A stretch of 64,000 nt of DNA from Eledone cirrhosa (taxonomy: Eukaryota), in the NCBI GenBank assembly GCA_964016885.1, contig OZ024742.1, positions 272,118,001 through 272,182,000 of the forward strand. The letters run 5' to 3'. Positions 16,717 through 49,942 of this stretch are shown piece by piece. The stretch's first letter is position 1. Each line of letters begins with the position of its first letter. Both the position numbers and the translations under genes were made by a program. The notes under the pieces were generated by a model. It was given only the letters and a program-made list of their open reading frames with translations. It did no database searches and was not told the origin of the DNA.

Positions 16717-16717
16717 A

Positions 16718-16838
16718 GAAATTGTTTCTACTTGTGGCAGAAGGTCAGGAATTATACTAGTGCATTACTGGTACATTATTTCATCGACCCCGTAAGGATG
16801 AATGGGAAATTTAACATTGGTGGGATTTGAACTCAGAT
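16718..16838 (-). mobile_element. tRNA-derived SINE, 5'-truncated and diverged
   Basis: Matches the full copy at 60039-60225 (ATCGACCCCGTAAGGATGAA...GGGATTTGAACTCAG; B-box GAGTTCAAATCCC on the minus strand). Confidence 0.8.
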
Positions 16839-17272
16839 AATAATAATAACTAGCAGAATTGCCAGGCGTTGCTCGGTATTCTGAACATAGATTGCCGTGT
16901 TTATCCCTCCTTTCTAAAACAGTACAGAGAAGTACGGAATACCCGGCCTCGTGATGGTGTCGACATTTTGTGCATATAAAAAAATAATTCATCGATAGTA
17001 CGTCAGCAATGAGAACAATATTTGCCCTAGGTATCTTATATATTTGATATATATTTATCCTCATCGAGTCTCGTAAAATAGGTATGTTTGTTTATATTTT
17101 GTTATTGTGCATGCAAAAATATGTGTACACTGATATATAATTATATATATATATTAAAATAACAGAAAGTTTAAGCAAATATTCGCTGATTTCGCCCTTA
17201 ACGGAACCTTCTGAAGCTAAAAATATCAACATGTGAGCACAGACGTAAATATTTCAATAAACGTTACACACA

Positions 17273-17293
17273 CTATATATATATATATATACA

Positions 17294-17362
<69 letters not shown>
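17273..17362. repeat. (AT)n microsatellite, left flank of the satellite array
   Basis: Direct reading. Confidence 0.95.
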
Positions 17363-17364
<2 letters not shown>

Positions 17365-17627
17365 TAAATCATGTGTTTAGAATTATTAGATAAAATATAT
17401 ACCGTTTCTTCTTCCAATTAGCATAATTAACCATGTAAAAAATCAATTAGACCAAGCTATAAGAAGAAAGGCTCTTATGAAGAAATCTTCGACAAATAAC
17501 CGAAAGTGGCCTCTTCGCGGTGACCCCAACATTTCGACAGCATGTGGAAACTGACTAAATATATCATCAGCCATACACAATTAGGTGTAAAATTAAACTT
17601 AGAAGAAATGTGTACATACCGTAGTTA

Positions 17628-17706
17628 TATCTCTACCATGGTTTCATCCGTATTTTTAGACATCCAATTAATAGGAATATCCTGAGTTACGATTCATCAG
17701 GAGACA
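17628..17706 (-). ncRNA. Type I hammerhead ribozyme motif (first monomer; one per monomer throughout the array)
   Basis: Minus strand: UGUCUC-CUGAUGA-AUCG...GGAU-GAAA-CCAUGG-UA-GAGAUA. Folded by eye. Confidence 0.7.
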
Positions 17707-20700
17707 AACTCAAAATCAGACATCTAGTTTTTCAACCTGATCGCGCCGAAATTAGATTCAAATATGGCTAAGAATCGCTATGTGGCTGTGGTCAAGCTAG
17801 AAAGAATGTGATTGGCTGCTTACGGTGGGTAGGCTTGTTGCTAGAAAGCGCAGCCAGATATCGCCAAATTTAATCTCAACCTAACAGGAGATTATTAAAT
17901 ATAAAGTTTTACATATACATAAAGTTATGGATATATATGTTGCAACTGGTCACTTTTAAGCTCTATGAAGAATTAATAAATTAAATAATCAGAGCAATAT
18001 ATAATAAATCATGTCTTTAGAATTATTAGATAAAATATATACCGTTTCTTCTTCCAATTAGCATAATTAAACCATATAAAAAATCAATTAGACCAAGCCA
18101 TAAGAAGAAAGGCTCTTATGAAGAAATCTTCGACAAATAACCGAAAGTGGCCTCTTCGCGGTGACCCCAATATGGTATATTTAGCCAACATTTCGACAGC
18201 ATGTGGAAACTGACTAAAAATATCATCAACCATACACAATTAGGTGTAAAATTAAACTTTAAAAAAATGTGTACATACCGTAATTATATCTCTACCATGG
18301 TTTCATCCGTATTTTTAGACATCCAATTAATAGGAATGCCCTGAGTTAGGATTCATCAGGAGTCAAACTCAAAATCAGACATCGAGTTTTTCAACCTGAT
18401 CGCGCCGAAATTAGATTTAAAAATGGCTAAGAATCGCTGTGGCTGAGGTCAAGCTAGAAAGTATGTGATTGGCTGCTTACGGCGGATAGGCTTGTTTCTA
18501 GAAAGCGCAGCCAGATATCGCCAAATTTAATCTCAACCTAATGGAAGATTATTAAATATAAAGTTTTACATATACATAAAGTTATAGATATATATGTTGC
18601 AACTGGTCACTTTTAAGCTATATGAAGAATTAATAAATTAAATAATCAGAGCAATATATCATAAATCATGTCTTTAGAATTATTAGATAAAATATATATC
18701 GTTTCTTCTTCCAATTAGCATAATTAACCATATAAAAAATCAATTAGACCAAGTTATAAGAAGATAGGCTCTTATGAAGAAATCTTCGACAAATAACCGA
18801 AAGTGGCCTCTTCGCAGTGACACCAATCTAGTATATTTATCCAACATTTCGACAGCATGTGGAAACTGACTAAATATATCATCAACCATACACAATTAGG
18901 TGTAAAATTAAACTTAGAAGAAATGTGTACATACCGTAATTATATCTCTACCATGGTTTCTTCCGTATTTTTAGACATCAAATTAATAGGAATGCCCTGA
19001 GTTACGATTCATCAGGAGTCAAACTCAAAATCAGACATCGAGTTTTTCAACCTGATCGCGCCGAAATTAGATTCATAAATGGCTAAGAATCGCTATGTGG
19101 CTGTGTGTCAAGCTAGAAAGTATGTGATTGGCTGCTTACGGCGGGTAGGCTTGTTTCTAGAAAGCGCAGCCAGATATCGCCAAATTTAATCTCAACCTAA
19201 TGGGAGATTATTAAATATAAAGTTTTACATAGACATAAAGTTATAGATATATATGTTGCAACTGGTCACTTTTAAGCTATATGAAGAATTAATAAATTAA
19301 ATAATCAGAGCAATATATCATAAATCATGTCTTTAGAATTATTAGATAAAATATATATCGTTTCTTCTTCCAATTAGCATAATTAACTATATAAAAAATC
19401 AATTAGACCAAGCTATAATAAGAAAGACTCTTATGAAGAAATCTTCGACAAATAACCGAAAGTGCCCTCTTCGCGGTGACGCCGATATGGTATATTTATC
19501 CAACATTTCTACAGCATGTGGAAACTGACTAAATATATCATAAAACATACACAATTAGGTGTAAAATTAAACAGTAGAAGAAATGTGTACATACCGTAAT
19601 TATATCTCTACCATGGTTTCATCCGTATTTTTAGACATCCAATTAATAGGAATGCCCTGAGTTAGGCTTCATCAGGAGTCAAACTCAAAATCAGACATCG
19701 AGTTTTTCAACCTGATCGCGCGAAATTAGATTCAAAAATGGCTAAGAATCACTGTGGCTGTGGTCAAGCTAGAAAGTATATGATTGGCTGCTTACGGCGG
19801 GTAGGCTTGTTTTTAGAAAGCGCAGCCAGATATCGCCAAATTTAATCTCAACCTAATGGGAGATTATTAAATATAAAGTTTTACATAGACATAAAGTTAT
19901 AGATATATATGTTGCAACTGGTCACTTTTAAGCTATATGAAGAATTAATAAATTAAATAATCAGAGCAATATATCATAAATCATGTCTTTAGAATTATTA
20001 GATAAAATATATACCGTTTCTTCTTCCAATTAGCATAATTAAACCATATAAAAAATCAATTAGACCAAGCCATAAGAAGAAAGGCTCTTATGAAGAAATC
20101 TTCGACAAATAACCGAAAGTGGCCTCTTCGCGGTGACCCCAATATGGTATATTTAGCCAACATTTCGCCAGTATGTGGAAACTGACTAAATATATCATCA
20201 ACCATACACAATTAGGCGTAAAATTAAACTTAGAAGAAATGTGTACATACCGTAATTATATCTCTACCATGGTTTCATCCGTATTTTTAGACATCCAATT
20301 AATAGGAATGCCCTGAGTTAGGATTCATCAGGAGTCAAACTCAAAATCAGACATCAAGTTTTTCAACCTGATCGCGCCGAAATTAGATTAAAAAATGGCT
20401 AAGAATCGCTGTGGCTGAGGTCAAGCTAGAAAGTATGTGATTGGCTGCTTACGGCGGGTAGGCTTGTTTCAAGAAAGCGCAGCCAGATATCGCCAAATTT
20501 AATCTCAACCTAATGGGAGATTATTAAATATAAAGTTTTACATATACATAAAGTTATAGATATATATGTTGCAACTGGTCACTTTTAAGCTATATGAAGA
20601 ATTAATAAATTAAATAATCAGAGCAATATATCATAAATCATGTCTTTAGAATTATTAGATAAAATATATATCGTTTCTTCTTCCAATTAGCATAAATAAC

Positions 20701-23700
20701 CATATAAAAAATCAATTAGACCAAGTTATAAGAAGATAGGCTCTTATGAAGAAATCTTTGACAAATAACCGAAAGTGGCCTCTTCGCAGTGACACCAATA
20801 TAGTATATTTATCCAACATTTCGACAGCATGTGGAAACTGACTAAATATATCATCAACCATACACAATTAGGTGTAAAATTAAACTTAGAAGAAATGTGT
20901 ACATACCGTAATTATATCTCTACCATGGTTTCTTCCGTATTTTTAGACATCCAATTAATAGGAATGCCCTGAGTTACGATTCATCAGGAGTCAAACTCAA
21001 AATGAGACATCGAGTTTTTCAACCTGATCGCGCCGAAATTAGATTCATAAATGGCTAAGAATCGCTGTGGCTGAGGTCAAGCTAGAAAGTATGTGATTGG
21101 CTGCTTACGGCGGATAGGCTTGTTTCTAGAAAGCGCAGCCAGATATCGCCAAATTTAATCTCAACCTAATGGAAGATTATTAAATATAAAGTTTTACATA
21201 TACATAAAGTTATAGATATATATGTTGCAACTGGTCACTTTTAAGCTATATGAAGAATTAATAAATTAAATAATCAGAGCAATATATCATAAATCATGTC
21301 TTTAGAATTATTAGATAAAATATATATCGTTTCTTCTTCCAATTAGCATAATTAACCATATAAAAAATCAATTAGACCAAGTTATAAGAAGATAGGCTCT
21401 TATGAAGAAATCTTCGACAAATAACCGAAAGTGGCCTCTTCGCAGTGACACCAATATAGTATATTTATCCAACATTTCGACAGCATGTGGAAACTGACTA
21501 AATATATCATCAACCATACACAATTAGGTGTAAAATTAAACTTAGAAGAAATGTGTACATACCGTAATTATATCTCTACCATGGTTTCTTCCGTATTTTT
21601 AGACATCAAATTAATAGGAATGCCCTGAGTTACGATTCATCAGGAGTCAAACTCAAAATCAGACATCGAGTTTTTCAACCTGATCGCGCCGAAATTAGAT
21701 TCATAAATGGCTAAGAATCGCTATGTGGCTGTGTGTCAAGCTAGAAAGTATGTGATTGGCTGCTTACGGCGGGTAGGCTTGTTTCTAGAAAGCGCAGCCA
21801 GATATCGCCAAATTTAATCTCAACCTAATGGGAGATTATTAAATATAAAGTTTTACATAGACATAAAGTTATAGATATATATGTTGCAACTGGTCACTTT
21901 TAAGCTATATGAAGAATTAATAAATTAAATAATCAGAGCAATATATCATAAATCATGTCTTTAGAATTATTAGATAAAATATATATCGTTTCTTCTTCCA
22001 ATTAGCATAATTAACTATATAAAAAATCAATTAGACCAAGCTATAATAAGAAAGACTCTTATGAAGAAATCTTCGACAAATAACCGAAAGTGCCCTCTTC
22101 GCGGTGACGCCGATATGGTATATTTATCCAACATTTCTACAGCATGTGGAAACTGACTAAATATATCATAAAACATACACAATTAGGTGTAAAATTAAAC
22201 AGTAGAAGAAATGTGTACATACCGTAATTATATCTCTACCATGGTTTCATCCGTATTTTTAGACATCCAATTAATAGGAATGCCCTGAGTTAGGCTTCAT
22301 CAGGAGTCAAACTCAAAATCAGACATCGAGTTTTTCAACCTGATCGCGCGAAATTAGATTCAAAAATGGCTAAGAATCACTGTGGCTGTGGTCAAGCTAG
22401 AAAGTATATGATTGGCTGCTTACGGCGGGTAGGCTTGTTTTTAGAAAGCGCAGCCAGATATCGCCAAATTTAATCTCAACCTAATGGGAGATTATTAAAT
22501 ATAAAGTTTTACATAGACATAAAGTTATAGATATATATGTTGCAACTGGTCACTTTTAAGCTATATGAAGAATTAATAAATTAAATAATCAGAGCAATAT
22601 ATCATAAATCATGTCTTTAGAATTATTAGATAAAATATATACCGTTTCTTCTTCCAATTAGCATAATTAAACCATATAAAAAATCAATTAGACCAAGCCA
22701 TAAGAAGAAAGGCTCTTATGAAGAAATCTTCGACAAATAACCGAAAGTGGCCTCTTCGCGGTGACCCCAATATGGTATATTTAGCCAACATTTCGCCAGC
22801 ATGTGGAAACTGACTAAATATATCATCAACCATACACAATTAGGCGTAAAATTAAACTTAGAAGAAATGTGTACATACCGTAATTATATCTCTACCATGG
22901 TTTCATCCGTATTTTTAGACATCCAATTAATAGGAATGCCCTGAGTTAGGATTCATCAGGAGTCAAACTCAAAATCAGACATCAAGTTTTTCAACCTGAT
23001 CGCGCCGAAATTAGATTAAAAAATGGCTAAGAATCGCTGTGGCTGAGGTCAAGCTAGAAAGTATGTGATTGGCTGCTTACGGCGGGTAGGCTTGTTTCAA
23101 GAAAGCGCAGCCAGATATCGCCAAATTTAATCTCAACCTAATGGGAGATTATTAAATATAAAGTTTTACATATACATAAAGTTATAGATATATATGTTGC
23201 AACTGGTCACTTTTAAGCTATATGAAGAATTAATAAATTAAATAATCAGAGCAATATATCATAAATCATGTCTTTAGAATTATTAGATAAAATATATATC
23301 GTTTCTTCTTCCAATTAGCATAAATAACCATATAAAAAATCAATTAGACCAAGTTATAAGAAGATAGGCTCTTATGAAGAAATCTTTGACAAATAACCGA
23401 AAGTGGCCTCTTCGCAGTGACACCAATATAGTATATTTATCCAACATTTCGACAGCATGTGGAAACTGACTAAATATATCATCAACCATACACAATTAGG
23501 TGTAAAATTAAACTTAGAAGAAATGTGTACATACCGTAATTATATCTCTACCATGGTTTCTTCCGTATTTTTAGACATCCAATTAATAGGAATGCCCTGA
23601 GTTACGATTCATCAGGAGTCAAACTCAAAATGAGACATCGAGTTTTTCAACCTGATCGCGCCGAAATTAGATTCATAAATGGCTAAGAATCGCTGTGGCT

Positions 23701-26700
23701 GAGGTCAAGCTAGAAAGTATGTGATTGGCTGCTTACGGCGGATAGGCTTGTTTCTAGAAAGCGCAGCCAGATATCGCCAAATTTAATCTCAACCTAATGG
23801 AAGATTATTAAATATAAAGTTTTACATATACATAAAGTTATAGATATATATGTTGCAACTGGTCACTTTTAAGCTATATGAAGAATTAATAAATTAAATA
23901 ATCAGAGCAATATATCATAAATCATGTCTTTAGAATTATTAGATAAAATATATATCGTTTCTTCTTCCAATTAGCATAATTAACCATATAAAAAATCAAT
24001 TAGACCAAGTTATAAGAAGATAGGCTCTTATGAAGAAATCTTCGACAAATAACCGAAAGTGGCCTCTTCGCAGTGACACCAATATAGTATATTTATCCAA
24101 CATTTCGACAGCATGTGGAAACTGACTAAATATATCATCAACCATACACAATTAGGTGTAAAATTAAACTTAGAAGAAATGTGTACATACCGTAATTATA
24201 TCTCTACCATGGTTTCTTCCGTATTTTTAGACATCAAATTAATAGGAATGCCCTGAGTTACGATTCATCAGGAGTCAAACTCAAAATCAGACATCGAGTT
24301 TTTCAACCTGATCGCGCCGAAATTAGATTCATAAATGGCTAAGAATCGCTATGTGGCTGTGTGTCAAGCTAGAAAGTATGTGATTGGCTGCTTACGGCGG
24401 GTAGGCTTGTTTCTAGAAAGCGCAGCCAGATATCGCCAAATTTAATCTCAACCTAATGGGAGATTATTAAATATAAAGTTTTACATAGACATAAAGTTAT
24501 AGATATATATGTTGCAACTGGTCACTTTTAAGCTATATGAAGAATTAATAAATTAAATAATCAGAGCAATATATCATAAATCATGTCTTTAGAATTATTA
24601 GATAAAATATATACCGTTTCTTCTTCCAATTAGCATAATTAAACCATATAAAAAATCAATTAGACCAAGCCATAAGAAGAAAGGCTCTTATGAAGAAATC
24701 TTCGACAAATAACCGAAAGTGGCCTCTTCGCGGTGACCCCAATATGGTATATTTAGCCAACATTTCGACAGCATGTGGAAACTGACTAAATATATCATCA
24801 ACCATACACAATTAGGTGTAAAATTAAACTTAGAAGAAATGTGTACATACCGTAATTATATCTCTACCATGATTTCATCCGTATTTTTAGACATCCAATT
24901 AATAGGAATGCCCTAAGTTAGGATTCATCAGGAATCAAACTCAAAATCAGACATCGAGTTTTTCAACCTGATCGCGCCGAAATTAGATTAAAAAATGGCT
25001 AAGAATCGCTGTGGCTGAGGTCAAGCTAGAAAGTATGTGATTGGCTGCTTACGGCGGGTAGGCTTGTTTCAAGAAAGCGCAGCCAGATATCGCCAAATTT
25101 AATCTCAACCTAATGGGAGATTATTAAATATAAAGTTTTACATATACATAAAGTTATAGATATATATGTTGCAACTGGTCACTTTTAAGCTATATGAAGA
25201 ATTAATAAATTAAATAATCAGAGCAATATATCATAAATCATGTCTTTAGAATTATTAGATAAAATATATATCGTTTCTTCTTCCAATTAGCATAATTAAC
25301 CATATAAAAAATCAATTAGACCAAATTATAAGAAGATAGGCTCTTATGAAGAAATCTTTGACAAATAACCGAAAGTGGCCTCTTCGCAGTGACACCAATA
25401 TAGTATATTTATCCAACATTTCGACAGCATGTGGAAACTGACTAAATATATCATCAACCATACACAATTAGGTGTAAAATTAAACTTAGAAGAAATGTGT
25501 ACATACCGTAATTATATCTCTACCATGGTTTCTTCCGTATTTTTAGACATCCAATTAATAGGAATGCCCTGAGTTACGATTCATCAGGAGTCAAACTCAA
25601 AATCAGACATCGAGTTTTTCAACCTGATCGCGCCGAAATTAGATTCATAAATGGCTAAGAATCGCTTTGTGGCTGTGTGTCAAGCTAGAAAGTATGTGAT
25701 TGGCTGCTTACGGCGGGTAGGCTTGTTTCTAGAAAGCGCAGCCAGATATCGCCAAATTTAATCTCAACCTAACGGGCGATTATTAAATATAAAGTTTTAC
25801 ATATACATAAAGTTATAGATATATATGTTGCAACTGGTCACTTTTAAGCTCTATCAAGAATTAATAAATTAAATAATCAGAGCAATATATCATAAATCAT
25901 GTCTTTAGAATTATTAAATAAAATATATACCGTTTCTTCTTCCAATTAGCATAATTAACCATATAAAAAATCAATTAGACCAAGCTATAATAAGAAAGAC
26001 TCTTATGAAGAAATCTTCGACAAATAACCGAAAGTGCCCTCTTCGCGGTGACGCCGATATGGTATATTTATCCAACATTTCTACAGCATGTGGAAACTGA
26101 CTAAATATATCATCAAACATACACAATTAGGTGTAAAATTAAACAGTAGAAGAAATGTGTACATACCGTAATTATATCTCTACCATGGTTTCATCCGTAT
26201 TTTTAGACATCCAATTAATAGGAATGCCCTGAGTTAGGCTTCATCAGGAGTCAAACTCAAAATCAGACATCGAGTTTTTCAACCTGATCGCGCCGAAATT
26301 AGATTAAAAAATGGCTAAGAATCGCTGTGGCTGAGGTCAAGCTAGAAAGTATGTGATTGGCTGCTTACGGCGGGTAGGCTTGTTTCAAGAAAGCGCAGCC
26401 AGATATCGCCAAATTTAATCTCAACCTAATGGGAGCTTATTAAATATAAAGTTTTACATATACATAAAGTTATAGATATATATGTTGCAACTGGTCACTT
26501 TTAAGCTATATGAAGAATTAATAAATTAAATAATCAGAGCAATATATCATAAATCATGTCTTTAGAATTATTAGATAAAATATATATCGTTTCTTCTTCC
26601 AATTAGCATAATTACCATATAAAAAATCAATTAGACCAAGTTATAAGAAGATAGGCTCTTATGAAGAAATCTTTGACAAATAACCGAAAGTGGCCTCTTC

Positions 26701-29700
26701 GCAGTGACACCAATATAGTATATTTATCCAACATTTCGACAGCATGTGGAAACTGACTAAATATATCATCAACCATACACAATTAGGTGTAAAATTAAAC
26801 TTAGAAGAAATGTGTACATACCGTAATTATATCTCTACCATGGTTTCTTCCGTATTTTTAGACATCCAATTAATAGGAATGCCCTGAGTTACGATTCATC
26901 AGGAGTCAAACTCAAAATCAGACATCGAGTTTTTCAACCTGATCGCGCCGAAATTAGATTCATAAATGGCTAAGAATCGCTTTGTGGCTGTGTGTCAAGC
27001 TAGAAAGTATGTGATTGGCTGCTTACGGCGGGTAGGCTTGTTTCTAGAAAGCGCAGCCAGATATCGCCAAATTTAATCTCAACCTAACGGGCGATTATTA
27101 AATATAAAGTTTTACATATACATAAAGTTATAGATATATATGTTGCAACTGGTCACTTTTAAGCTCTATCAAGAATTAATAAATTAAATAATCAGAGCAA
27201 TATATCATAAATCATGTCTTTAGAATTATTAAATAAAATATATACCGTTTCTTCTTCCAATTAGCATAATTAACCATATAAAAAATCAATTAGACCAAGC
27301 TATAATAAGAAAGACTCTTATGAAGAAATCTTCGACAAATAACCGAAAGTGCCCTCTTCGCGGTGACGCCGATATGGTATATTTATCCAACATTTCTACA
27401 GCATGTGGAAACTGACTAAATATATCATCAAACATACACAATTAGGTGTAAAATTAAACAGTAGAAGAAATGTGTACATACCGTAATTATATCTCTACCA
27501 TGGTTTCATCCGTATTTTTAGACATCCAATTAATAGGAATGCCCTGAGTTAGGCTTCATCAGGAGACAAACTCAAAATCAGACATCGAGTTTTTCAACCT
27601 GATCGCGCCGAAATTAGATTAAAAAATGGCTAAGAATCGCTGTGGCTGAGGTCAAGCTAGAAAGTATGTGATTGGCTGCTTACGGCGGGTAGGCTTGTTT
27701 CTAGAAAGCGCAGCCAGATATCGCCAAATTTAATCTCAACCTAATGGGAGATTATTAAATATAAAGTTTTACATATACATAAAGTTATAGATATATATGT
27801 TGCAACTGGTCACTTTTAAGCTATATGAAGAATTAATAAAATAATAATCAGAGCAATATATCATAAATCATGTCTTTAGAATTATTAGATAAAATATATA
27901 TCGTTTCTTCTTCCAATTAGCATAATTAACCATATAAAAAATCAATTAGACCAAGTTATAAGAAGATAGGCTCTTATGAAGAAATCTTTGACAAATAACC
28001 GAAAGTGGCCTCTTCGCAGTGACACCAATATAGTATATTTATCCAACATTTCGACAGCATGTGGAAACTGACTAAATATATCATCAACCATACACAATTA
28101 GGTGTAAAATTAAACTTAGAAGAAATGTGTACATACCGTAATTATATCTCTACCATGGTTTCTTCCGTATTTTTAGACATCCAATTAATAGGAATGCCCT
28201 GAGTTACGATTCATCAGGAGTCAAACTCAAAATCAGACATCGAGTGTTTCAACCTGATCGCGCCGAAATTAGATTCATTAATGGCTAAGAATCGCTTTGT
28301 GGCTGTGTGTCAAGCTAGAAAGTATGTGATTGGCTGCTTACGGCGGGTAGGCTTGTTTCTAGAAAGCGCAGCCAGATATCGCCAAATTTAATCTCAACCT
28401 AACGGGCGATTATTAAATATAAAGTTTTACATATACATAAAGTTATAGATATATATGTTGCAACTGGTCACTTTTAAGCTCTATCAAGAATTAATAAATT
28501 AAATAATCAGAGCAATATATCATAAATCATGTCTTTAGAATTATTAAATAAAATATATACCGTTTCTTCTTCCAATTAGCATAATTAACCATATAAAAAA
28601 TCAATTAGACCAAGCTATAAGAAGAAAGACTCTTATGAAGAAATCTTCGACAAATAACCGAAAGTGTCCTCTTCGCGGTGACGCCGATATGGTATATTTA
28701 TCCAACATTTCTACAACATGTGGAAACTGACTAAATATATCATCAACCATACACAATTAGGTGTAAAATTCAACAGTAGAAGAAATGTGTACATACCGTA
28801 ATTATATCTCTACCATGGTTTCATCCGTATTTTTAGACATCCAATTAATAGGAATGCCCTGAGTTAGGCTTCATCAGGAGTCAAACTCAAAATCAGACAT
28901 CGAGTTTTTCAACCTGATCGCGCCGAAATTAGATTCAAAAATGGCTAAGAATCACTGTGGCTGTGGTCAAGCTAGAAAGTATATGATTGGCTGCTTACGG
29001 CGGGTAGGCTTGTTTCTAGAAAGCGCAGCCAGATATCGCCAAATTTAATCTCAACCTAATGGGAGATTATTAAATATAAAGTTTTACATAGACATAAAGT
29101 TATAGATATATATGTTGCAACTGGTCACTTTTAAGCTATATGAAGAATTAATAAATTAAATAATCAGAGCAATATATCATAAATCATGTCTTTAGAATTA
29201 TTAGATAAAATATATACCGTTTCTTCTTCCAATTAGCATAATTAAACCATATAAAAAATCAATTAGACCAAGCCATAAGAAGAAAGGCTCTTATGAAGAA
29301 ATCTTCGACAAATAACCGAAAGTGGCCTCTTCGCGGTGACCCCAATATGGTATATTTAGCCAACATTTCGACAGCATGTGGAAACTGACTAAATATATCA
29401 TCAACCATACACAATTAGGTGTAAAATTAAACTTAGAAGAAATGTGTACATACCGTAATTATATCTCTACCATGGTTTCATCCGTATTTTTAGACATCCA
29501 ATTAATAGGAATGCCCTGAGTTAGGCTTCATCAGGAGTCAAACTCAAAATCAGACATCGAGTTTTTCAACCTGATCGCGCCGAAATTAGATTAAAAAATG
29601 GCTAAGAATCGCTGTGGCTGAGGTCAAGCTAGAAAGTATGTGATTGGCTGCTTACGGCGGGTAGGCTTGTTTCAAGAAAGCGCAGCCAGATATCGCCAAA

Positions 29701-35700: not shown

Positions 35701-38700
35701 GTCACTTTTAAGCTATATGAAGAATTAATAAATTAAATAATCAGAGCAATATATCATAAATCATGTCTTTAGAATTATTAGATAAAATATATACCGTTTC
35801 TTCTTCCAATTAGCATAATTAAACCATATAAAAAATCAATTAGACCAAGCCATAAGAAGAAAGGCTCTTATGAAGAAATCTTCGACAAATAACCGAAAGT
35901 GGCCTCTTCGCGGTGACCCCAATATGGTATATTTAGCCAACATTTCGACAGCATGTGGAAACTGACTAAATATATCATCAACCATACACAATTAGGTGTA
36001 AAATTAAACTTAGAAGAAATGTGTACATACCGTAATTATATCTCTACCATGGTTTCATCCGTATTTTTAGACATCCAATTAATATGAATGCCCTGAGTTA
36101 GGATTCATCAGGAGTCAAACTCAAAATCAGACATCGAGTTTTTCAACCTGATCGCGCCGAAATTAGATTAAAAAATGGCTAAGAATCGCTGTGGCTGAGG
36201 TCAAGCTAGAAAGTATGTGATTGGCTGCTTACGGCGGGTAGGCTTGTTTCAAGAAAGCGCAGCCAGATATCGCCAAATTTAATCTCAACCTAATGGGAGA
36301 TTATTAAATATAAAGTTTTACATATACATAAAGTTATAGATATATATGTTGCAACTGGTCACTTTTAAGCTATATGAAGAATTAATAAATTAAATAATCA
36401 GAGCAATATATCATAAATCATGTCTTTAGAATTATTAGATAAAATATATATGGTTTCTTCTTCCAATTAGCATAATTAACCATATAAAAAATCAATTAGA
36501 CCAAGTTATAAGAAGATAGACTCTTATGAAGAAATCTTCGACAAATAACCGAAAGTGCCCTCTTCGCGGTGACGCCGATATGGTATATTTATCCAACATT
36601 TCTACAACATGTGGAAACTGACTAAATATATCATCAACCATACACAATTAGGTGTAAAATTAAACAGTAGAAGAAATGTGTACATACCGTAATTATATCT
36701 CTACCATGGTTTCATCCGTATTTTTAGACATCCAATTAATAGGAATGCCCTGAGTTAGGCTTCATCAGGAGTCAAACTCAAAATCAGACATCGAGTTTTT
36801 CAACCTGATCGCGCCGAAATTAGATTCAAAAATGGCTAAGAATCACTGTGGCTGTGGTCAAGCTAGAAAGTATATGATTGGCTGCTTACGGCGGGTAGGC
36901 TTGTTTCTAGAAAGCGCAGCCAGATATCGCCAAATTTAATCTCAACCTAATGGGAGATTATTAAATATAAAGTTTTACATATACATAAAGTTATAGATAT
37001 ATATGTTGCAACTGGTCACTTTTAAGCTATATGAAGAATTAATAAATTAAATAATCAGAGCAATATATCATAAATCATGTCTTTAGAATTATTAGATAAA
37101 ATATATATCGTTTCTTCTTCCAATTAGCATAATTAACCATATAAAAAATCAATTAGACCAAGTTATAAGAAGATAGGCTCTTATGAAGAAATCTTTGACA
37201 AATAACCGAAAGTGGCCTCTTCGCAGTGACACCAATATAGTATATTTATCCAACATTTCGACAGCATGTGGAAACTGACTAAATATATCATCAACCATAC
37301 ACAATTAGGTGTAAAATTAAACTTAGAAGAAATGTGTACATACCGTAATTATATCTCTACCATGGTTTCTTCCGTATTTTTAGACATCCAATTAATAGGA
37401 ATGCCCTGAGTTACGATTCATCAGGAGTCAAACTCAAAATCAGACATCGAGTTTTTCAACCTGATCGCGCCGAAATTAGATTCATAAATGGCTAAGAATC
37501 GCTTTGTGGCTGTGTGTCAAGCTAGAAAGTATGTGATTGGCTGCTTACGGCGGGTAGGCTTGTTTCTAGAAAGCGCAGCCAGATATCGCCAAATTTAATC
37601 TCAACCTAACGGGCGATTATTAAATATAAAGTTTTACATATACATAAAGTTATAGATATATATGTTGCAACTGGTCACTTTTAAGCTCTATCAAGAATTA
37701 ATAAATTAAATAATCAGAGCAATATATCATAAATCATGTCTTTAGAATTATTAAATAAAATATATACCGTTTCTTCTTCCAATTAGCATAATTAACCATA
37801 TAAAAAATCAATTAGACCAAGCTATAAGAAGAAAGACTCTTATGAAGAAATCTTCGACAAATAACCGAAAGTGCCCTCTTCGCGATGACGCCGATATGGT
37901 ATATTTATCCAACATTTCTACAACATGTGGAAACTGACTAAATATATCATCAACCATACACAATTAGGTGTAAAATTAAACAGTAGAAGAAATGTGTACA
38001 TACCGTAATTATATCTCTACCATGGTTTCATCCGTATTTTTAGACATCCAATTAATAGGAATGCCCTGAGTTAGGCTTCATCAGGAGTCAAACTCAAAAT
38101 CAGACATCGAGTTTTTCAACCTGATCGCGCCGAAATTAGATTCAAAAATGGCTAAGAATCACTGTGGCTGTGGTCAAGCTAGAAAGTATATGATTGGCTG
38201 CTTACGGCGGGTAGGCTTGTTTCTAGAAAGCGCAGCCAGATATCGCCAAATTTAATCTCAACCTAATGGGAGATTATTAAATATAAAGTTTTACATAGAC
38301 ATAAAGTTATAGATATATATGTTGCAACTGGTCACTTTTAAGCTATATGAAGAATTAATAAATTAAATAATCAGAGCAATATATCATAAATCATGTCTTT
38401 AGAATTATTAGATAAAATATATACCGTTTCTTCTTCCAATTAGCATAATTAAACCATATAAAAAATCAATTAGACCAAGCCATAAGAAGAAAGGCTCTTA
38501 TGAAGAAATCTTCGACAAATAACCGAAAGTGGCCTCTTCGCGGTGACCCCAATATGGTATATTTAGCCAACATTTCGACAGCATGTGGAAACTGACTAAA
38601 TATATCATCAACCATACACAATTAGGTGTAAAATTAAACTTAGAAGAAATGTGTACATACCGTAATTATATCTCTACCATGGTTTCATCCGTATTTTTAG

Positions 38701-41700
38701 ACATCCAACTAATAGGAATGCCCTGAGTTAGGATTCATCAGGAGTCAAACTCAAAATCAGACATCGAGTTTTTCAACCTGATCGCGCCGAAATTAGATTA
38801 AAAAATGGCTAAGATTCGCTGTGGCTGAGGTCAAGCTAGAAAGTATGTGATTGGCTGCTTACGGCGGGTAGGCTTGTTTCAAGAAAGCGCAGCCAGATAT
38901 CGCCAAATTTAATCTCAACCTAATGGGAGATTATTAAATATAAAGTTTTACATATACATAAAGTTATAGATATATATGTTGCAACTGGTCACTTTTAAGC
39001 TCTATGAAGAATTAATAAATTAAATAATCAGAGCAATATATCATAAATCATGTCTTTAGAATTATTAGATAAAATATATATGGTTTCTTCTTCCAATTAG
39101 CATAATTAACCATATAAAAAATCAATTAGACCAAGTTATAAGAAGATAGACTCTTATGAAGAAATCTTCGACAAATAACCGTAAGTGCCCTCTTCGCGGT
39201 GACGCCGATATGGTATATTTATCCAACATTTCTACAACATGTGGAAACTGACTAAATATATCATCAACCATACACAATTAGGTGTAAAATTAAACAGTAG
39301 AAGAAATGTGTACATACCGTAATTATATCTCTACCATGGTTTCATCCGTATTTTTAGACATCCAATTAATAGGAATGCCCTGAGTTAGGCTTCATCAGGA
39401 GTCAAACTCAAAATCAGACATCGAGTTTTTCAACCTGATCGCGCCGAAATTAGATTCAAAAATGGCTAAGAATCACTGTTGCTGTGGTCAAGCTAGAAAG
39501 TATATGATTGGCTGCTTACGGCGGGTAGGCTTGTTTCTAGAAAGCGCAGCCAGATATCGCCAAATTTAATCTCAACCTAATGGGAGATTATTAAATATAA
39601 AGTTTTACATAGACATAAAGTTATAGATATATATGTTGCAACTGGTCACTTTTAAGCTATATGAAGAATTAATAAATTAAATAATCAGAGCAATATATCA
39701 TAAATCATGTCTTTAGAATTATTAGATAAAATATATATCGTTTCTTCTTCCAATTAGCATAATTAACCATATAAAAAATCAATTAGACCAAGTTATAAGA
39801 AGATAGGCTCTTATGAAGAAATCTTTGACAAATAACCGAAAGTGGCCTCTTCGCAGTGACACCAATATAGTATATTTATCCAACATTTCGACAGCATGTG
39901 GAAACTGACTAAATATATCATCAACCATACACAATTAGGTGTAAAATTAAACTTAGAAGAAATGTGTACATACCGTAATTATATCTCTACCATGGTTTAT
40001 TCCGTATTTTTAGACATCCAATTAATAGGAATGCCCTGAGTTACGATTCATCAGGAGTCAAACTCAAAATCAGACATCGAGTTTTTCAACCTGATCGCGC
40101 CGAAATTAGATTCATAAATGGCTAAGAATCGCTTTGTGGCTGTGTGTCAAGCTAGAAAGTATGTGATTGGCTGCTTACGGCGGGTAGGCTTGTTTCTAGA
40201 AAGCGCAGCCAGATATCGCCAAATTTAATCTCAACCTAACGGGCGATTATTAAATATAAAGTTTTACATATACATAAAGTTATAGATATATATGTTGCAA
40301 CTGGTCACTTTTAAGCTCTATCAAGAATTAATAAATTAAATAATCAGAGCAATATATCATAAATCATGTCTTTAGAATTATTAAATAAAATATATACCGT
40401 TTCTTCTTCCAATTAGCATAATTAACCATATAAAAAATCAATTAGACCAAGCTATAAGAAGAAAGACTCTTATGAAGAAATCTTCGACAAATAACCGAAA
40501 GTGCCCTCTTCGCGATGACGCCGATATGGTATATTTATCCAACATTTCTACAACATGTGGAAACTGACTAAATATATCATCAACCATACACAATTAGGTG
40601 TAAAATTAAACAGTAGAAGAAATGTGTACATACCGTTATTATATCTCTACCATGGTTTCATCCGTATTTTTAGACATCCAATTAATAGGAATGCCCTGAG
40701 TTAGGCTTCATCAGGAGTCAAACTCAAAATCAGACATCGAGTTTTTCAACCTGATCGCGCCGAAATTAGATTCAAAAATGGCTAAGAATCACTGTGGCTG
40801 TGGTCAAGCTAGAAAGTATATGATTGGCTGCTTACGGCGGGTAGGCTTGTTTCTAGAAAGCGCAGCCAGATATCGCCAAATTTAATCTCAACCTAATGGG
40901 AGATTATTAAATATAAAGTTTTACATAGACATAAAGTTATAGATATATATGTTGCAACTGGTCACTTTTAAGCTATATGAAGAATTAATAAATTAAATAA
41001 TCAGAGCAATATATCATAAATCATGTCTTTAGAATTATTAGATAAAATATATACCGTTTCTTCTTCCAATTAGCATAATTAAACCATATAAAAAATCAAT
41101 TAGACCAAGCCATAAGAAGAAAGGCTCTTATGAAGAAATCTTCGACAAATAACCGAAAGTGGCCTCTTCGCGGTGACCCCAATATGGTATATTTAGCCAA
41201 CATTTCGACAGCATGTGGAAACTGACTAAATATATCATCAACCATACACAATTAGGTGTAAAATTAAACTTAGAAGAAATGTGTACATACCGTAATTATA
41301 TCTCTACCATGGTTTCATCCGTATTTTTAGACATCCAACTAATAGGAATGCCCTGAGTTAGGATTCATCAGGAGTCAAACTCAAAATCAGACATCGAGTT
41401 TTTCAACCTGATCGCGCCGAAATTAGATTAAAAAATGGCTAAGATTCGCTGTGGCTGAGGTCAAGCTAGAAAGTATGTGATTGGCTGCTTACGGCGGGTA
41501 GGCTTGTTTCAAGAAAGCGCAGCCAGATATCGCCAAATTTAATCTCAACCTAATGGGAGATTATTAAATATAAAGTTTTACATATACATAAAGTTATAGA
41601 TATATATGTTGCAACTGGTCACTTTTAAGCTATATGAAGAATTAATAAATTAAATAATCAGAGCAATATATCATAAATCATGTCTTTAGAATTATTAGAT

Positions 41701-44700
41701 AAAATATATATCGTTTCTTCTTCCAATTAGCATAATTAACCATATAAAAAATCAATTAGACCAAGTTATAAGAAGATAGGCTCTTATGAAGAAATCTTTG
41801 ACAAATAACCGAAAGTGGCCTCTTCGCAGTGACACCAATATAGTATATTTATCCAACATTTCGACAGCATGTGGAAACTGACTAAATATATCATCAACCA
41901 TACACAATTAGGTGTAAAATTAAACTTAGAAGAAATGTGTACATACCGTAATTATATCTCTACCATGGTTTCTTCCGTATTTTTAGACATCCAATTAATA
42001 GGAATGCCCTGAGTTACGATTCATCAGGAGTCAAACTCAAAATCAGACATCGAGTTTTTCAACCTGATCGCGCCGAAATTAGATTCATAAATGGCTAAGA
42101 ATCGCTTTGTGGCTGTGTGTCAAGCTAGAAAGTATGTGATTGGCTGCTTACGGCGGGTAGGCTTGTTTCTAGAAAGCGCAGCCAGATATCGCCAAATTTA
42201 ATCTCAACCTAACGGGCGATTATTAAATATAAAGTTTTACATATACATAAAGTTATAGATATATATGTTGCAACTGGTCACTTTTAAGCTCTATCAAGAA
42301 TTAATAAATTAAATAATCAGAGCAATATATCATAAATCATGTCTTTAGAATTATTAAATAAAATATATACCGTTTCTTCTTCCAATTAGCATAATTAACC
42401 ATATAAAAAATCAATTAGACCAAGCTATAAGAAGAAAGACTCTTATGAAGAAATCTTCGACAAATAACCGAAAGTGCCCTCTTCGCGATGACGCCGATAT
42501 GGTATATTTATCCAACATTTCTACAACATGTGGAAACTGACTAAATATATCATCAACCATACACAATTAGGTGTAAAATTAAACAGTAGAAGAAATGTGT
42601 ACATACCGTAATTATATCTCTACCATGGTTTCATCCGTATTTTTAGACATCCAATTAATAGGAATGCCCTGAGTTAGGCTTCATCAGGAGTCAAACTCAA
42701 AATCAGACATCGAGTTTTTCAACCTGATCGCGCCGAAATTAGATTCAAAAATGGCTAAGAATCACTGTGGCTGTGGTCAAGCTAGAAAGTATATGATTGG
42801 CTGCTTACGGCGGGTAGGCTTGTTTCTAGAAAGCGCAGCCAGATATCGCCAAATTTAATCTCAACCTAATGGGAGATTATTAAATATAAAGTTTTACATA
42901 GACATAAAGTTATAGATATATATGTTGCAACTGGTCACTTTTAAGCTATATGAAGAATTAATAAATTAAATAATCAGAGCAATATATCATAAATCATGTC
43001 TTTAGAATTATTAGATAAAATATATACCGTTTCTTCTTCCAATTAGCATAATTAAACCATATAAAAAATCAATTAGACCAAGCCATAAGAAGAAAGGCTC
43101 TTATGAAGAAATCTTCGACAAATAACCGAAAGTGGCCTCTTCGCGGTGACCCCAATATGGTATATTTAGCCAACATTTCGACAGCATGTGGAAACTGACT
43201 AAATATATCATCAACCATACACAATTAGGTGTAAAATTAAACTTAGAAGAAATGTGTACATACCGTAATTATATCTCTACCATGGTTTCATCCGTATTTT
43301 TAGACATCCAACTAATAGGAATGCCCTGAGTTAGGATTCATCAGGAGTCAAACTCAAAATCAGACATCGAGTTTTTCAACCTGATCGCGCCGAAATTAGA
43401 TTAAAAAATGGCTAAGATTCGCTGTGGCTGAGGTCAAGCTAGAAAGTATGTGATTGGCTGCTTACGGCGGGTAGGCTTGTTTCAAGAAAGCGCAGCCAGA
43501 TATCGCCAAATTTAATCTCAACCTAATGGGAGATTATTAAATATAAAGTTTTACATATACATAAAGTTATAGATATATATGTTGCAACTGGTCACTTTTA
43601 AGCTCTATGAAGAATTAATAAATTAAATAATCAGAGCAATATATCATAAATCATGTCTTTAGAATTATTAGATAAAATATATATGGTTTCTTCTTCCAAT
43701 TAGCATAATTAACCATATAAAAAATCAATTAGACCAAGTTATAAGAAGATAGACTCTTATGAAGAAATCTTCGACAAATAACCGTAAGTGCCCTCTTCGC
43801 GGTGACGCCGATATGGTATATTTATCCAACATTTCTACAACATGTGGAAACTGACTAAATATATCATCAACCATACACAATTAGGTGTAAAATTAAACAG
43901 TAGAAGAAATGTGTACATACCGTAATTATATCTCTACCATGGTTTCATCCGTATTTTTAGACATCCAATTAATAGGAATGCCCTGAGTTAGGCTTCATCA
44001 GGAGTCAAACTCAAAATCAGACATCGAGTTTTTCAACCTGATCGCGCCGAAATTAGATTCAAAAATGGCTAAGAATCACTGTTGCTGTGGTCAAGCTAGA
44101 AAGTATATGATTGGCTGCTTACGGCGGGTAGGCTTGTTTCTAGAAAGCGCAGCCAGATATCGCCAAATTTAATCTCAACCTAATGGGAGATTATTAAATA
44201 TAAAGTTTTACATAGACATAAAGTTATAGATATATATGTTGCAACTGGTCACTTTTAAGCTATATGAAGAATTAATAAATTAAATAATCAGAGCAATATA
44301 TCATAAATCATGTCTTTAGAATTATTAGATAAAATATATATCGTTTCTTCTTCCAATTAGCATAATTAACCATATAAAAAATCAATTAGACCAAGTTATA
44401 AGAAGATAGGCTCTTATGAAGAAATCTTTGACAAATAACCGAAAGTGGCCTCTTCGCAGTGACACCAATATAGTATATTTATCCAACATTTCGACAGCAT
44501 GTGGAAACTGACTAAATATATCATCAACCATACACAATTAGGTGTAAACTTAAACTTAGAAGAAATGTGTACATACCGTAATTATATCTCTACCATGGTT
44601 TCATCCGTATTTTTAGACATCCAATTAATAGGAATGCCCTGAGTTAGGATTCATCAGGAGTCAAACTCAAAATCAGACATCGAGTTTTTCAACCTGATCG

Positions 44701-47215
44701 CGCCGAAATTAGATTCATAAATGGCTAAGAATCGCTATGTGGCTGTGTGTCAAGCTAGAAAGTATGTGATTGGCTGCTTACGGCGGGTAGGCTTGTTTCT
44801 AGAAAGCGCAGCCAGATATCGCCAAATTTAATCTCAACCTAACGGGCGATTATTAAATATAAAGTTTTACATATACATAAAGTTATAGATATATATGTTG
44901 CAACTGGTCACTTTTAAGCTCTATCAAGAATTAATAAATTAAATAATCAGAGCAATATATCATAAATCATGTCTTTAGAATTATTAAATAAAATATATTC
45001 CGTTTCTTCTTCCAATTAGCATAATTAACCATATAAAAAATCAATTAGACCAAGCTATAAGAAGAAAGACTTTTATGAAGAAATCTTCGACAAATAACCG
45101 AAAGTGCCCTCTTCGCGGTGACGCCGATATTGTATATTTATCCAATATTTCTACAACATGTGGAAACTGACTAAATATATCATCAACCATACACAATAGG
45201 TGTAAAATTAAACAGTAGAAGAAATGTGTACATACCGTAATTATATCTCTACTATGGTTTCATCCGTATTTTTAGACATCCAATTAATAGGAATGCCCTG
45301 AGTTAGGCTTCATCAGGAGTCAAACTCAAAATCAGACATCGAGTTTTTCAACCTGATCGCGCCGAAATTAGATTCAAAAATGGCTAAGAATCACTGTGGC
45401 TGTGGTCAAGCTAGAAAGTATATGATTGGCTGCTTACGGCGGGTAGGCTTGTTTCTAGAAAGCGCAGCCAGATATCGCCAAATTTAATCTCAACCTAATG
45501 GGAGATTATTAAATATAAAGTTTTACATAGACATAAAGTTATAGATATATATGTTGCAACTGGTCACTTTTAAGCTATATGAAGAATTAATAAATTAAAT
45601 AATCAGAGCAATATATCATAAATCATGTCTTTAGAATTATTAGATAAAATATATACCGTTTCTTCTTCCAATTAGCATAATTAAACCATATAAAAAATCA
45701 ATTAGACCAAGCCATAAGAAGAAAGGCTCTTATGAAGAAATCTTCGACAAATAACCGAAAGTGGCCTCTTCGCGGTGACCCCAATATGGTATATTTAGCC
45801 AACATTTCGACAGCATGTGGAAACTGACTAAATATATCATCAACCATACACAATTAGGTGTAAACTTAAACTTAGAAGAAATGTGTACATACCGTAATTA
45901 TATCTCTACCATGGTTTCATCCGTATTTTTAGACATCCAATTAATAGGAATGCCCTGAGGTAGGATTCATCAGGAGTCAAACTCAAAATCAGACATCGAG
46001 TTTTTCAACCTGATCGCGCCGAAATTAGATTCATAAATGGCTAAGAATCGCTATGTGGCTGTGTGTCAAGCTAGAAAGTATGTGATTGGCTGCTTACGGC
46101 GGGTAGGCTTGTTTCTAGAAAGCGCAGCCAGATATCGCCAAATTTAATCTCAACCTAACGGGCGATTATTAAATATAAAGTTTTACATATACATAAAGTT
46201 ATAGATATATATGTTGCAACTGGTCACTTTTAAGCTCTATCAAGAATTAATAAATTAAATAATCAGAGCAATATATCATAAATCATGTCTTTAGAATTAT
46301 TAAATAAAATATATTCCGTTTCTTCTTCCAATTAGCATAATTAACCATATAAAAAATCAATTAGACCAAGCTATAAGAAGAAAGACTTTTATGAAGAAAT
46401 CTTCGACAAATAACCGAAAGTGCCCTCTTCGCGGTGACGCCGATATTGTATATTTATCCAATATTTCTACAACATGTGGAAACTGACTAAATATATCATC
46501 AACCATACACAATAGGTGTAAAATTAAACAGTAGAAGAAATGTGTACATACCGTAATTATATCTCTACTATGGTTTCATCCGTATTTTTAGACATCCAAT
46601 TAATAGGAATGCCCTGAGTTAGGCTTCATCAGGAGTCAAACTCAAAATCAGACATCGAGTTTTTCAACCTGATCGCGCCGAAATTAGATTCAAAAATGGC
46701 TAAGAATCACTGTGGCTGTGGTCAAGCTAGAAAGTATATGATTGGCTGCTTACGGCGGGTAGGCTTGTTTCTAGAAAGCGCAGCCAGATATCGCCAAATT
46801 TAATCTCAACCTAATGGGAGATTATTAAATATAAAGTTTTACATAGACATAAAGTTATAGATATATATGTTGCAACTGGTCACTTTTAAGCTATATGAAG
46901 AATTAATAAATTAAATACTCAGAGCAATGTATCATAAATCATGTCTTTAGAATTATTAGATAAAATATATACTGTTTCTTCTTCCAATTAGCATAATTAA
47001 CCATATAAAATATCAATTAGACCAAGTTATAAGAAAAAAGGCTCTTATGAAGAAATCTTCGACAAATAACCGAAAGTGGCCTCTTCGCAGTGACACCAAT
47101 ATAGTATATTTATCCAACATTTCCACAGCATGTGGAAACTGACTAAATATATCATCAACAATACACAATTAGGTGTAAAATTAAACTTAGAAGAAATGTG
47201 TACATACCGTAATTA

Positions 47216-47294
47216 TATCTCTACCATGGTTTCATCCGTATTTTTAGACATCCAATTAATAGGAATGTCCTGAGTTAGGATTCATCAGGAGACA
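47216..47294 (-). ncRNA. Type I hammerhead ribozyme motif, best-preserved copy (last direct monomer)
   Basis: UGUCUC|CUGAUGA|AUCC uaacuca GGACAuUCC uauuaauu GGAUGUCU aaaaauac GGAU|GAAA|C-CAUG-G|UA^|GAGAUA. Stem I is 6 bp, stem II is extended, stem III is minimal with the palindrome ACCAUGGU. Predicted cleavage is after GUA, between 47222 and 47221. Confidence 0.8.
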
Positions 47295-47497
47295 AACTCA
47301 AAATCAGACATCTAGTTTTTTAACCTGATCGCGCCGAAATTAGATTAAAAAATGGCTAAGAATCGCTATGTGGCTGTGGTCAAGCTAGAAAGAATGTGAC
47401 TGGCTGCTTACGGATATCGCCAGATATCGCCAAATCTTTTCTCAACCTAACGGGAGATTATTATATATACAGTTTTAATTATACATAAAGTTATAAA

Positions 47498-48595
47498 GTT
47501 ATTTGTCGAAGATTTCTTCATAAGAGCATTTCTTCTTATAGCTTGGTCTAATTGATTTTTTATATGGTTAATTATGCTAATTGGAAGAAGAAACGGTATA
47601 TATTTTATCTAATACTTCTAAAGACATGATTTATGATATATTGCTCTGATTATTTAATTTATTAATTCTTCATAGAGCTTAAAAGTGACAGGTTGCAACA
47701 CATATATCTATAACTTTATGTATATGTAAATCTTTATATTTAATAATCTCCCATTAGTTTGAGATTAAATTTGGTGATCTCTGGCTGCGCTTTCTAGCAA
47801 CAAGCCTACCCGCCGTAAGCAGCCAATCCCATTCTTTCTAGCTTGACCACAGCCACATAGCGACTCTTAGCCATTTTTGAATCTAATTTCGGCGCGATCA
47901 GGTTGAAAAACTCGATGTCTGATTCTGAGTTTGACTCCTGATGAATCCTAACTCAGGACATTCCTATTAATTGGATGTCTAAAAATACGGATGAGACCAT
48001 GGTAGAGATATAATTACGGTATGTACACATTTCTTCTGAGTTTAATTTTACACCTAATTGTGTATGGTTGATGATATATATAGTCAGTTTCTACGTGCTG
48101 TCGAAATGCTGGAAAAATATACTATATTGGGGTCACCACGAAGAGGCCACTTTCGGTTATTTGTCGAAGGTTTCTTGATAAGAGTCTTTCTTCTCATAGC
48201 TTGGACTAATTGATTTTTTATATGGTTAATTATGCTAATTGGAAGAAGAAACGGTATATAGTATATCTAATAATTCTAAAGACATGATTTATGATATATT
48301 GCTCTGATTATTTAAATTATTATTTCTTCATAGAGCTTAAAAGTGACCAGTTGCAACATATATATCTATAACTTTATGTACATGTAAAACTTTATATTCA
48401 ATAATCTCCCGTTAGGTTGAGATTAAATTTGGCGATATCTGGCTGCGCTTTCTAGCAACAAGCCTACTCGCCGTAAGCAGCCAATCACATTCTTTCTAGC
48501 TTGATCACAGCCACATAGCGATTATTAGCCATTTATGAATCTGATTTCGGCGCGATGAGGTTGAAAAACTAGATGTCTGATTTTGAGTCTGTCTC

Positions 48596-48600
<5 letters not shown>
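47498..48600. repeat. Inverted block of ~1.7 satellite monomers
   Basis: Reverse complement of the array unit. Its hammerhead at 47932-48010 (+) has GAAA mutated to GAGA. The block ends at GTCTCCTGAT and runs into (AT)n. Confidence 0.95.
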
Positions 48601-48690
<90 letters not shown>

Positions 48691-48714
48691 TATATATATA
48701 CATATATACACACA
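48599..48714. repeat. (AT)n/(AC)n microsatellite, right flank of the array
   Basis: Direct reading. Confidence 0.95.
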
Positions 48715-49014
48715 CCACAGATAGTGTCATAATGTCGTAATGCATAGATCCAGTCATGCGTATATTATAAGGGAGCATGGTTACATCTATGTATCTATCT
48801 AAAAAGACAGACTAAGAAAGACAGAGAGAGATCGCTAACCGACGCCTAATGCGCTCCCTAGGGTATTGAACATTTGAAATATCTTTCGCTCAAAACACTC
48901 ACACGACCATAAGTATTACAGGTGTAAAGTTTGAAAAAATCGGTTCAGTAGTTCTCGAGTTTTAGGGAGTCAGATAGACAGACATACATACATTCTCTGT
49001 TTTAGATACATAGA

Positions 49015-49907
49015 TAATGTTTTTTTATTGGCCACAGGGGCTAACATGAAGAAAAACATTACAGACGGCACAGAATGGTACAGTATGATACGATATGTAT
49101 TTTGGCCGTGTATTATAACAAGATAGAGATTGTGATAGAGTTGAAAAAATTAAAAACAACAAAAATTCCCCCAAAAAAGGGAAACCCGCCGAGGGTCAAT
49201 CGTGGCGAAATCCACACAAAAGAACACGGTCACCCTGATCACCAGGGCAAGCGCCCTCTCTTAGTTTTCCCACACCTCAGTCTACATGCTCATACTCAGA
49301 GCAGGTCCGTTCACTCGGAGCAGACTCGCCACTTTCACTCGCCTCTCAACAAACTTACTAGAAAACAGCACTTGCCTCTCCACCCTGATTTTCCTCTTCA
49401 GGTGAAATTTGAAAAAGTTAATCAGGGTGTGCCCGGAGAGGAAAGTGTTCGTTTTCCATCCTTTCAACATTTTCCACCACACAATCTTTTGCGCCACGGC
49501 CACCAAGCAGATGAAAACTGCTGGCCGTTCCTCCCCTTTAAAGGAGGATGGCGGGTCTATCTGCACAATGAATGCATCCTACACGTGACAGCAACTGTTC
49601 GACATAGCCCCAGAAGTCAGCAATCCTCGGGCAGTGAACGAGTGCGTGCAGGACGGTTTCGTCGCCCTGCGCGCATCTCGGACAGGCTCGGCTGTCAGCA
49701 CCACCCTGCCTGTACTGCTTATCACGAACCGGTAACGCTCCCCGGTAGTATTGCCAGGCCAGGGTTTTCTGGAAGTTGTACATAGACCTGGATCTGAAAG
49801 TTCTCTTGAAGAGAGCGAAATGCTGATCGTCTGCGACGCCCAGGGTCTCCCAGAGAACGTCGTTGATCTTCCCCTTAGCTAGCCCTCTATAGAATGCTGA
49901 GGTGGAT

Positions 49908-49910: not shown

Positions 49911-49942
<32 letters not shown>

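Follow-up and report, generated by a model that had tools for sequence, protein, structure and literature searches.

The unit of a classic non-long-terminal-repeat (non-LTR) retrozyme measures 150-400 bp. Non-LTR retrozymes carry type I hammerhead ribozymes in tandem units of 51-972 bp, with up to 300 units per array (bioRxiv 10.64898/2026.07.22.740005), and units of ~220-390 bp were described by Cervera & de la Pena 2020 (PMC7229834). These elements have been proposed to be locally expanding derivatives of Penelope-like elements (PLEs; bioRxiv 10.64898/2026.07.22.740005; PMC7229834), and the preprint, which sampled no mollusc, models their expansion by unequal crossover (bioRxiv 10.64898/2026.07.22.740005). 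PLE insertions in turn combine partial tandems and a neighboring copy that is inverted and 5'-truncated, and show a (TA)n bias in Naiad and Neptune; among the published Naiads, those of octopus target (TA)n, and a split hammerhead core occurs in one of them (PMC8557442). Here, we analyzed 64,000 nucleotides of the Eledone cirrhosa assembly GCA_964016885.1 (contig OZ024742.1, positions 272,118,001 to 272,182,000 of the forward strand; hereafter the window, with positions counted from its first letter), in which the two ends of a Helitron flank an insert of more than 31 kb made of hammerhead-bearing units. Our analysis points to a non-LTR retrozyme or PLE derivative that probably inserted into the microsatellite of a non-autonomous Helitron and expanded in place.

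Like non-LTR retrozymes, this array is non-coding, low in GC and tandemly organized, contains a type I hammerhead motif whose stem III is short and palindromic, and has a unit length and copy number inside the reported ranges. It differs from them in its longer unit, in a 40-nt loop 2 that contains a hairpin and in the A-U pair at 10.1-11.1, and also in that it has an inverted arm, is nested in a Helitron and is known here from sequence alone. The insert shares with the PLEs Neptune and Naiad its partial tandems, inverted copy, (TA)n target and a hammerhead near the 3' end (PMC8557442, PMC4209133), whereas, unlike PLEs, it holds no reverse transcriptase (RT) or GIY-YIG open reading frame. The unit has no match in the 3' ends of the octopus Naiad consensus sequences, in which the half-cores stand in reverse order. 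Neither Naiad_Obim nor Naiad_Ovul was retained as a direct parent, and Naiad_Omin showed no resemblance to the unit by eye.

The Helitron itself resembles, by structure alone, the non-autonomous elements of the Lep1/Hel1 type (PMC4038834, PMC6544945), with which it shares a 5'-TC, a 3'-CTRR, insertion at A|T without duplication and a short non-coding body; unlike these, its hairpin is degenerate and its body is split by the insert of 31 kb. An array lying between rolling-circle element ends and beside a microsatellite also occurs in Cg_HINE of oyster (PMC7492417) and DINE-TR1 of Drosophila (PMC12628747), where it is a family-wide module with 140-180-bp monomers, a mean of 3.6 copies and ends of the subterminal inverted repeat (subTIR) type. 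In contrast, the ends found here are canonical Helitron ends and the array bears the marks of a separate retroinsertion. An earlier sequence-only reading of the window had cited Helitron/Helentron derivatives with internal tandem repeats in bivalves and Drosophila; such arrays are indeed documented in oyster and Drosophila, but there they are short modules shared across the family. Recent insertions of Penelope, L1-Tx1 and Helitron elements are reported in a recent annotation of Octopus vulgaris, whose available part makes no mention of ribozymes (PMC13282606). Both the Helitron and the retrozyme unit may already be catalogued in Repbase-type libraries.

The minus-strand Helitron termini consist of a 5'-TC at 49014-49013 and a 3'-CTAG at 16850-16853, and span 32,165 bp. 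They lie in the (AAT)n tail of a long interspersed nuclear element (LINE) that we take to be Tx1-type, a label assumed from its domain architecture rather than from a tree. When the interval is excised, A|T is joined on the minus strand, which gives (AAT)n followed by the Tx1-type 3' untranslated region (UTR) without any target duplication; the restored tail and 3' UTR align unbroken to all four of the other Tx1 ends tested in the window. The restored site also aligns over ~420 bp to a Helitron-free stretch at ~52250-52660, in which a short interspersed nuclear element (SINE)-like repeat, (AAT)n and Tx1 follow one another. A 5'-TC and 3'-CTRR on one strand, together with an A|T insertion without duplication, are the canonical features of a non-autonomous Helitron. 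The left part of the host tail, at 16838-16849 (minus strand), is the Helitron target and is preceded by a copy of the SINE-like repeat (16720-16838, no strand assigned; five copies within the window), whereas the rest of the tail, the 3' UTR and the truncated zf-RVT end of the host LINE lie at 49015-49906 (minus strand).

Both parts of the Helitron are on the minus strand. Its 3' half (16850-17265) contains the CTAG and a degenerate subterminal hairpin at ~16858-16883, which is imperfect, lies where the 16-20-bp hairpin of Helitrons is expected and folds no better than shuffled sequences (-3.8 kcal/mol, z -0.21). The 5' half (48711-49014) starts with the TC at 49014; it also has a short run resembling (GTMT)n and, at 48938-48953, a conserved box that recurs in many animal-type repeats. 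Since the site is restored seamlessly and a 28-bp duplication is present at both inner borders, a single element is likely, and we strongly infer that both halves belong to one Helitron. No second copy of it was found within the 64-kb window, and the halves showed no mutual similarity at word size 7 and E<=1, a search below which an 11-bp repeat could fall, Helentrons having subterminal inverted repeats of 11-12 bp. The 32.2-kb distance between Helitron-type termini, the restoration of the Tx1 tail and 3' UTR at A|T and the presence of one Helitron, all put forward in the sequence-only reading, agree with these results, the alignments running straight across the join. The small size that it gave holds in kind, not in figure: counting the 28-bp duplication once, the pre-insertion Helitron would have measured 748 bp (nearer 0.75 kb), and the 929 bp behind the proposed ~0.9 kb include both expanded TA tracts.

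The insert occupies positions 17363-48598 (31,236 bp) and is formed by a tandem arm followed by an inverted arm. The tandem arm (17363-47497, minus strand; 33% GC, non-coding) comprises 45 full units of ~657 bp (640-660 bp) and one partial unit, has its hammerhead on the minus strand, and includes three inner unit types (A/B/C) with block duplications; the unit gave no Pfam match in any of its six frames. The inverted arm (47498-48598, plus strand; 1.1 kb, ~1.7 units) stands head-to-head with the tandem arm, shares a short GTTAT microhomology with it where the two meet, and terminates within the hammerhead core. Read in the sense of the hammerhead, the insert has a 3' end on either side, and these ends adjoin (TA)n tracts, at 17274-17362 on the left and 48599-48669 on the right. 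A 28-bp (CA)4C(TA)nCA direct duplication, a candidate target-site duplication of the retroinsertion, is found at 17266-17293 and, with 27/28 identity, at 48683-48710, and no other place in the window contains its 16-mer junction. A tandem arm with an adjacent inverted, 5'-truncated copy in a (TA)n target is the layout of PLE insertions, the (TA)n target being seen here in a single insertion. Because the insert carries this retrotransposition signature of its own, we regard it as a secondary insertion and not as a central repeat of the HINE type. The nesting order proposed earlier, from the Tx1 tail to the Helitron, its (AT)n tract and the hammerhead repeat, is supported, and so is the suggested retroelement origin of the cargo, with its inverted 5' arm, (TA)n target and flanking duplication. 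A tandem ribozyme array does fill the Helitron as had been described; its last 1.1 kb is inverted, which had gone unmentioned.

Further details of the insert deserve mention. The last tandem unit (47385-47497) is rearranged near the inversion junction, where ~20 bp are deleted and a short stretch is duplicated locally; at the junction itself, AAAGTTAT occurs in duplicate. In addition, each unit contains a CCAAT-box-like motif ~130 nt upstream of the hammerhead (e.g., 17809-17819, minus strand), which could be part of an internal promoter.

The sole fully paired type I hammerhead is located at 47216-47294 (minus strand) and comprises a 6-bp stem I, a CUGAUGA box, a 4-bp stem II, a GAAA box, a palindromic stem III and a GUA site; its 40-nt loop 2 contains an internal hairpin. 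A strict type I hammerhead descriptor matched none of 5000 unit shuffles and a lax one matched 7 of 5000, and the descriptor scan returned no second, plus-strand hammerhead. We scored 47 units, excluding the truncated last one: both core boxes are kept in 45, stem II, the palindrome and at least 3 bp of stem I in 11, and the 6-bp stem I in three (two of them at the edges), this last feature being present in the truncated unit as well. All stems are paired in 1/47 units, and the fold is damaged in the other 46. The term ribozyme satellite used in the sequence-only reading is thus an overstatement. One inner unit (27210-27865) has an edge-type 6-bp stem I, which would have arisen by back-mutation or by gene conversion. 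The palindromic stem III has a computed dimer pairing of -13.2 kcal/mol, a type of pairing known for animal type I hammerheads (PMC4209133); by analogy, the ancestral ribozyme probably worked as a dimer that released monomers from multimeric transcripts.

Comparison of the units points to growth at this locus. Edge units are 5-12% apart, the three inner types ~3-4% apart, and 39 of the 44 inner units have a twin within 0.5% (identical in 21). Moreover, three columns are fixed across the inner units (44/44) and carry another state in each of the edge units covering them. On the basis of these inner-only shared changes and near-identical twins, we conclude that the array grew locally. The A/B/C types follow no regular order; exact duplicated blocks recur at lags of 2, 3, 4, 7, 8 and 10 units, and the longest exact repeat reaches 3,037 bp. 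This pattern indicates that all 44 inner units descend from one local founder unit by stepwise duplication and that ribozyme-breaking changes were carried along during the expansion. No Helitron termini were found within the units, and the arrangement does not fit a single rolling-circle concatemer. Expansion after landing, which the sequence-only reading had kept as its fallback, is therefore backed by the fixed changes, twins and block lags, and its proposal that rolling-circle transposition could disperse or amplify such arrays is not supported, given the missing termini, the irregular order and the single local founder.

To place the unit in a wider context, one unit was compared with Logan contigs from three sequencing runs of one sample; no RNA run was among those listed. 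It drew 1990, 2252 and 2166 contigs, respectively, of which 1164, 1289 and 1255 were less than 95% alike. A head-to-tail unit joint was present in two of the three runs and one opposite-strand joint in all three, the latter at other unit positions than the inversion of this locus. The 18 loose ends listed for the unit contigs (428 more lie beyond the listing) were read as diverged subfamilies, and none of these 18 was Helitron-like by eye. The contigs thus indicate that the 657-bp unit is an abundant, diverged family in the sampled runs, and therefore not peculiar to this locus. Of the 40 variable sites listed, 36 were used to obtain allele shares (57 further sites lie beyond the listing): at the three sites that set the inner units apart, the edge allele accounts for 99%, 99% and 73% of the summed depth, and the majority alleles restore pairing at stem positions 19005 and 18995. 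Contig depth was greater near the unit 3' end than over the hammerhead, an observation that was left unused given that contig depth cannot rank parts.

In the history that we consider likely, the starting point would be the arrangement still visible at the locus, that is, a Tx1-type LINE adjoining a SINE with an (AAT)n tail. A non-autonomous Helitron of ~0.75 kb then inserted at an A|T in this tail, as its termini and the restored site show. Next, a non-autonomous PLE derivative with a ~657-nt unit would have entered the internal (CA)/(TA) microsatellite of the Helitron, presumably by target-primed reverse transcription with a putative PLE RT/GIY-YIG partner; the ~28-bp duplication and two arms, a short tandem one and an inverted 5' one, would be the outcome, in keeping with the observed layout. 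Finally, one inner unit would have given rise to 44 copies in place, putatively through repeated unequal exchange or slippage of blocks of 2-10 units, with the ribozyme stems decaying, as the pattern of unit variants suggests. The Helitron would have been a passive landing pad. Read in this way, the locus would be a well-preserved case of satellite birth, where the insertion of the retrozyme, its local expansion and the decay of its ribozyme can be put in order at one place, and it would fit, in an invertebrate, the model in which PLE terminal repeats seed satellites (bioRxiv 10.64898/2026.07.22.740005). In addition, the locus draws attention to an abundant repeat family whose long-loop type I hammerhead escapes Rfam. 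If other Helitron copies carry the unit, a DNA transposon would be acting as a vector that spreads a ribozyme retroelement.

Several observations weigh against this history. The hammerhead departs from the canon in having A-U at 10.1-11.1 instead of G10.1-C11.1 and a 40-nt loop 2 instead of a short one (canon as in PMC4209133), the active-type fold is 3 kcal/mol less stable than the free one, and Rfam gave no match at the gathering score in the window and four chance-level matches on 17300-20000. An autonomous PLE partner was not found in a search of the Naiad/Chlamys/Hydra consensus supplement: by eye, the unit is unlike the 3' ends of the three octopus Naiads published there, and none of eight short unit motifs occurs in it as an exact match. 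In addition, the 28-bp duplication is low-complexity sequence, the tree split between edge and inner units has a support of only 88/91, and the runs represent one sample, maybe of a related species (best share of words 0.26). It should be noted that no empty copy of the Helitron and no solo insertion of the retrozyme was encountered, the reading being confined to this window. The non-canonical stems and the missing Rfam match, together with the microhomology at the inversion junction and the report that 8/9 predicted retrozyme dimers were uncleaved (bioRxiv 10.64898/2026.07.22.740005), could instead indicate an ordinary satellite, or a piece of another repeat, whose hammerhead was never active and whose inversion came from break repair or template switching. 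We consider this decidedly unlikely in view of the strict descriptor result on shuffled units, the pair-restoring majority alleles at 19005 and 18995, and the inversion joint found elsewhere in the unit in all three runs. It is very improbable that the ends are two separate Helitron insertions or that an assembly artefact accounts for the array length: the window contains no contiguous empty copy, and a 3,037-bp exact repeat is enough to confuse short reads, but the site is seamless, the end polarity matches, the inner borders share the duplication, the window contains no N and the units differ in ordered patterns.

Other alternatives give the Helitron an active role. A Helitron subfamily with a PLE-derived hammerhead retrozyme as an internal module, dispersed by rolling-circle transposition and seeding locally expanding satellites, appears improbable, and Helitron-driven dispersal or co-mobilisation of the array, which no observation supports, has a similarly low probability; within limited literature coverage, no published case of a Helitron containing a retrozyme array was found. 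A retrozyme-bearing subfamily might have moved on with few units and an inverted arm, the array of this copy expanding later. In agreement with this, both Helitron termini are intact, oyster Helitrons/Helentrons carry short arrays (mean 3.6 monomers, longest 29; PMC7492417) and a founder insert of few kb fits the normal Helitron size range (PMC6431247). Nevertheless, such a subfamily is quite unlikely considering the degenerate 3' hairpin, the lack of Helitron likeness by eye among the 18 listed loose ends (428 more) and a unit family diverse enough for an independent mobile element. As for the 32-kb composite having been amplified or moved whole by rolling-circle transposition, cargo-bearing maize Helitrons of up to 39 kb (PMC6431247) and tandem arrays produced by aberrant rolling-circle replication (PMC12628747) provide precedents; however, such arrays repeat Helitron 5' ends (PMC12628747), of which the units have none, and the block structure is irregular and age-layered, which leaves this alternative extremely unlikely.

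Turning to the conserved box of the Helitron 5' half, an exact 22-mer gave no match in a metagenome scan, and a scan of viral contigs gave none either. The relaxed box was found at 83 metagenome loci, where similarity is limited to short matches with the 5' half, and neither the 3' half nor the 657-bp unit was matched. This 16-bp box is common to several unrelated-looking repeat families of eukaryotic metagenome contigs and appears to be a widely reused motif; since it is present in several repeat types, it is no identifier of the Helitron family. At one of these loci (L011), TC, box and hairpin-CTAG follow in this order within ~1.2 kb up to the contig end, and this locus is an analogue only.

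Beyond the Helitron, the window is repeat-rich animal sequence, with repeats, the SINE-like one among them, that presumably resemble octopus repeats. Several decayed LINE copies, 70-90% identical to one another and all on the minus strand, form a Tx1-type cluster at 295-16717 and 49015-57646. A Pfam profile search detected RVT_1 (E 3e-14, 1e-15) and zf-RVT in the flanking LINE family, and gave a weak match to Exo_endo_phos, under the Pfam cut-off. At least six Tx1-type 3' ends are present (near 315, 5915, 11504, 49025, 49948 and 52398), with a variant near 16140. One short motif is found upstream of the tail at both 5870 and 16104, which suggests head-to-tail stacking or a targeted site. At both 16720-16849 and 52250-52400, a Tx1 3' end directly adjoins the SINE-like repeat at its (AAT)n tail, and these two junctions would reflect either paralogous duplication or Tx1 targeting of SINE tails. 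The SINE-like repeat also occurs as a tandem dimer at 56261-56655 (period 201, 94% match) and as an inverted copy at ~60043-60230. Finally, the right end of the window (63146-64000) is a tandem duplication of ~438 bp with 91% identity.

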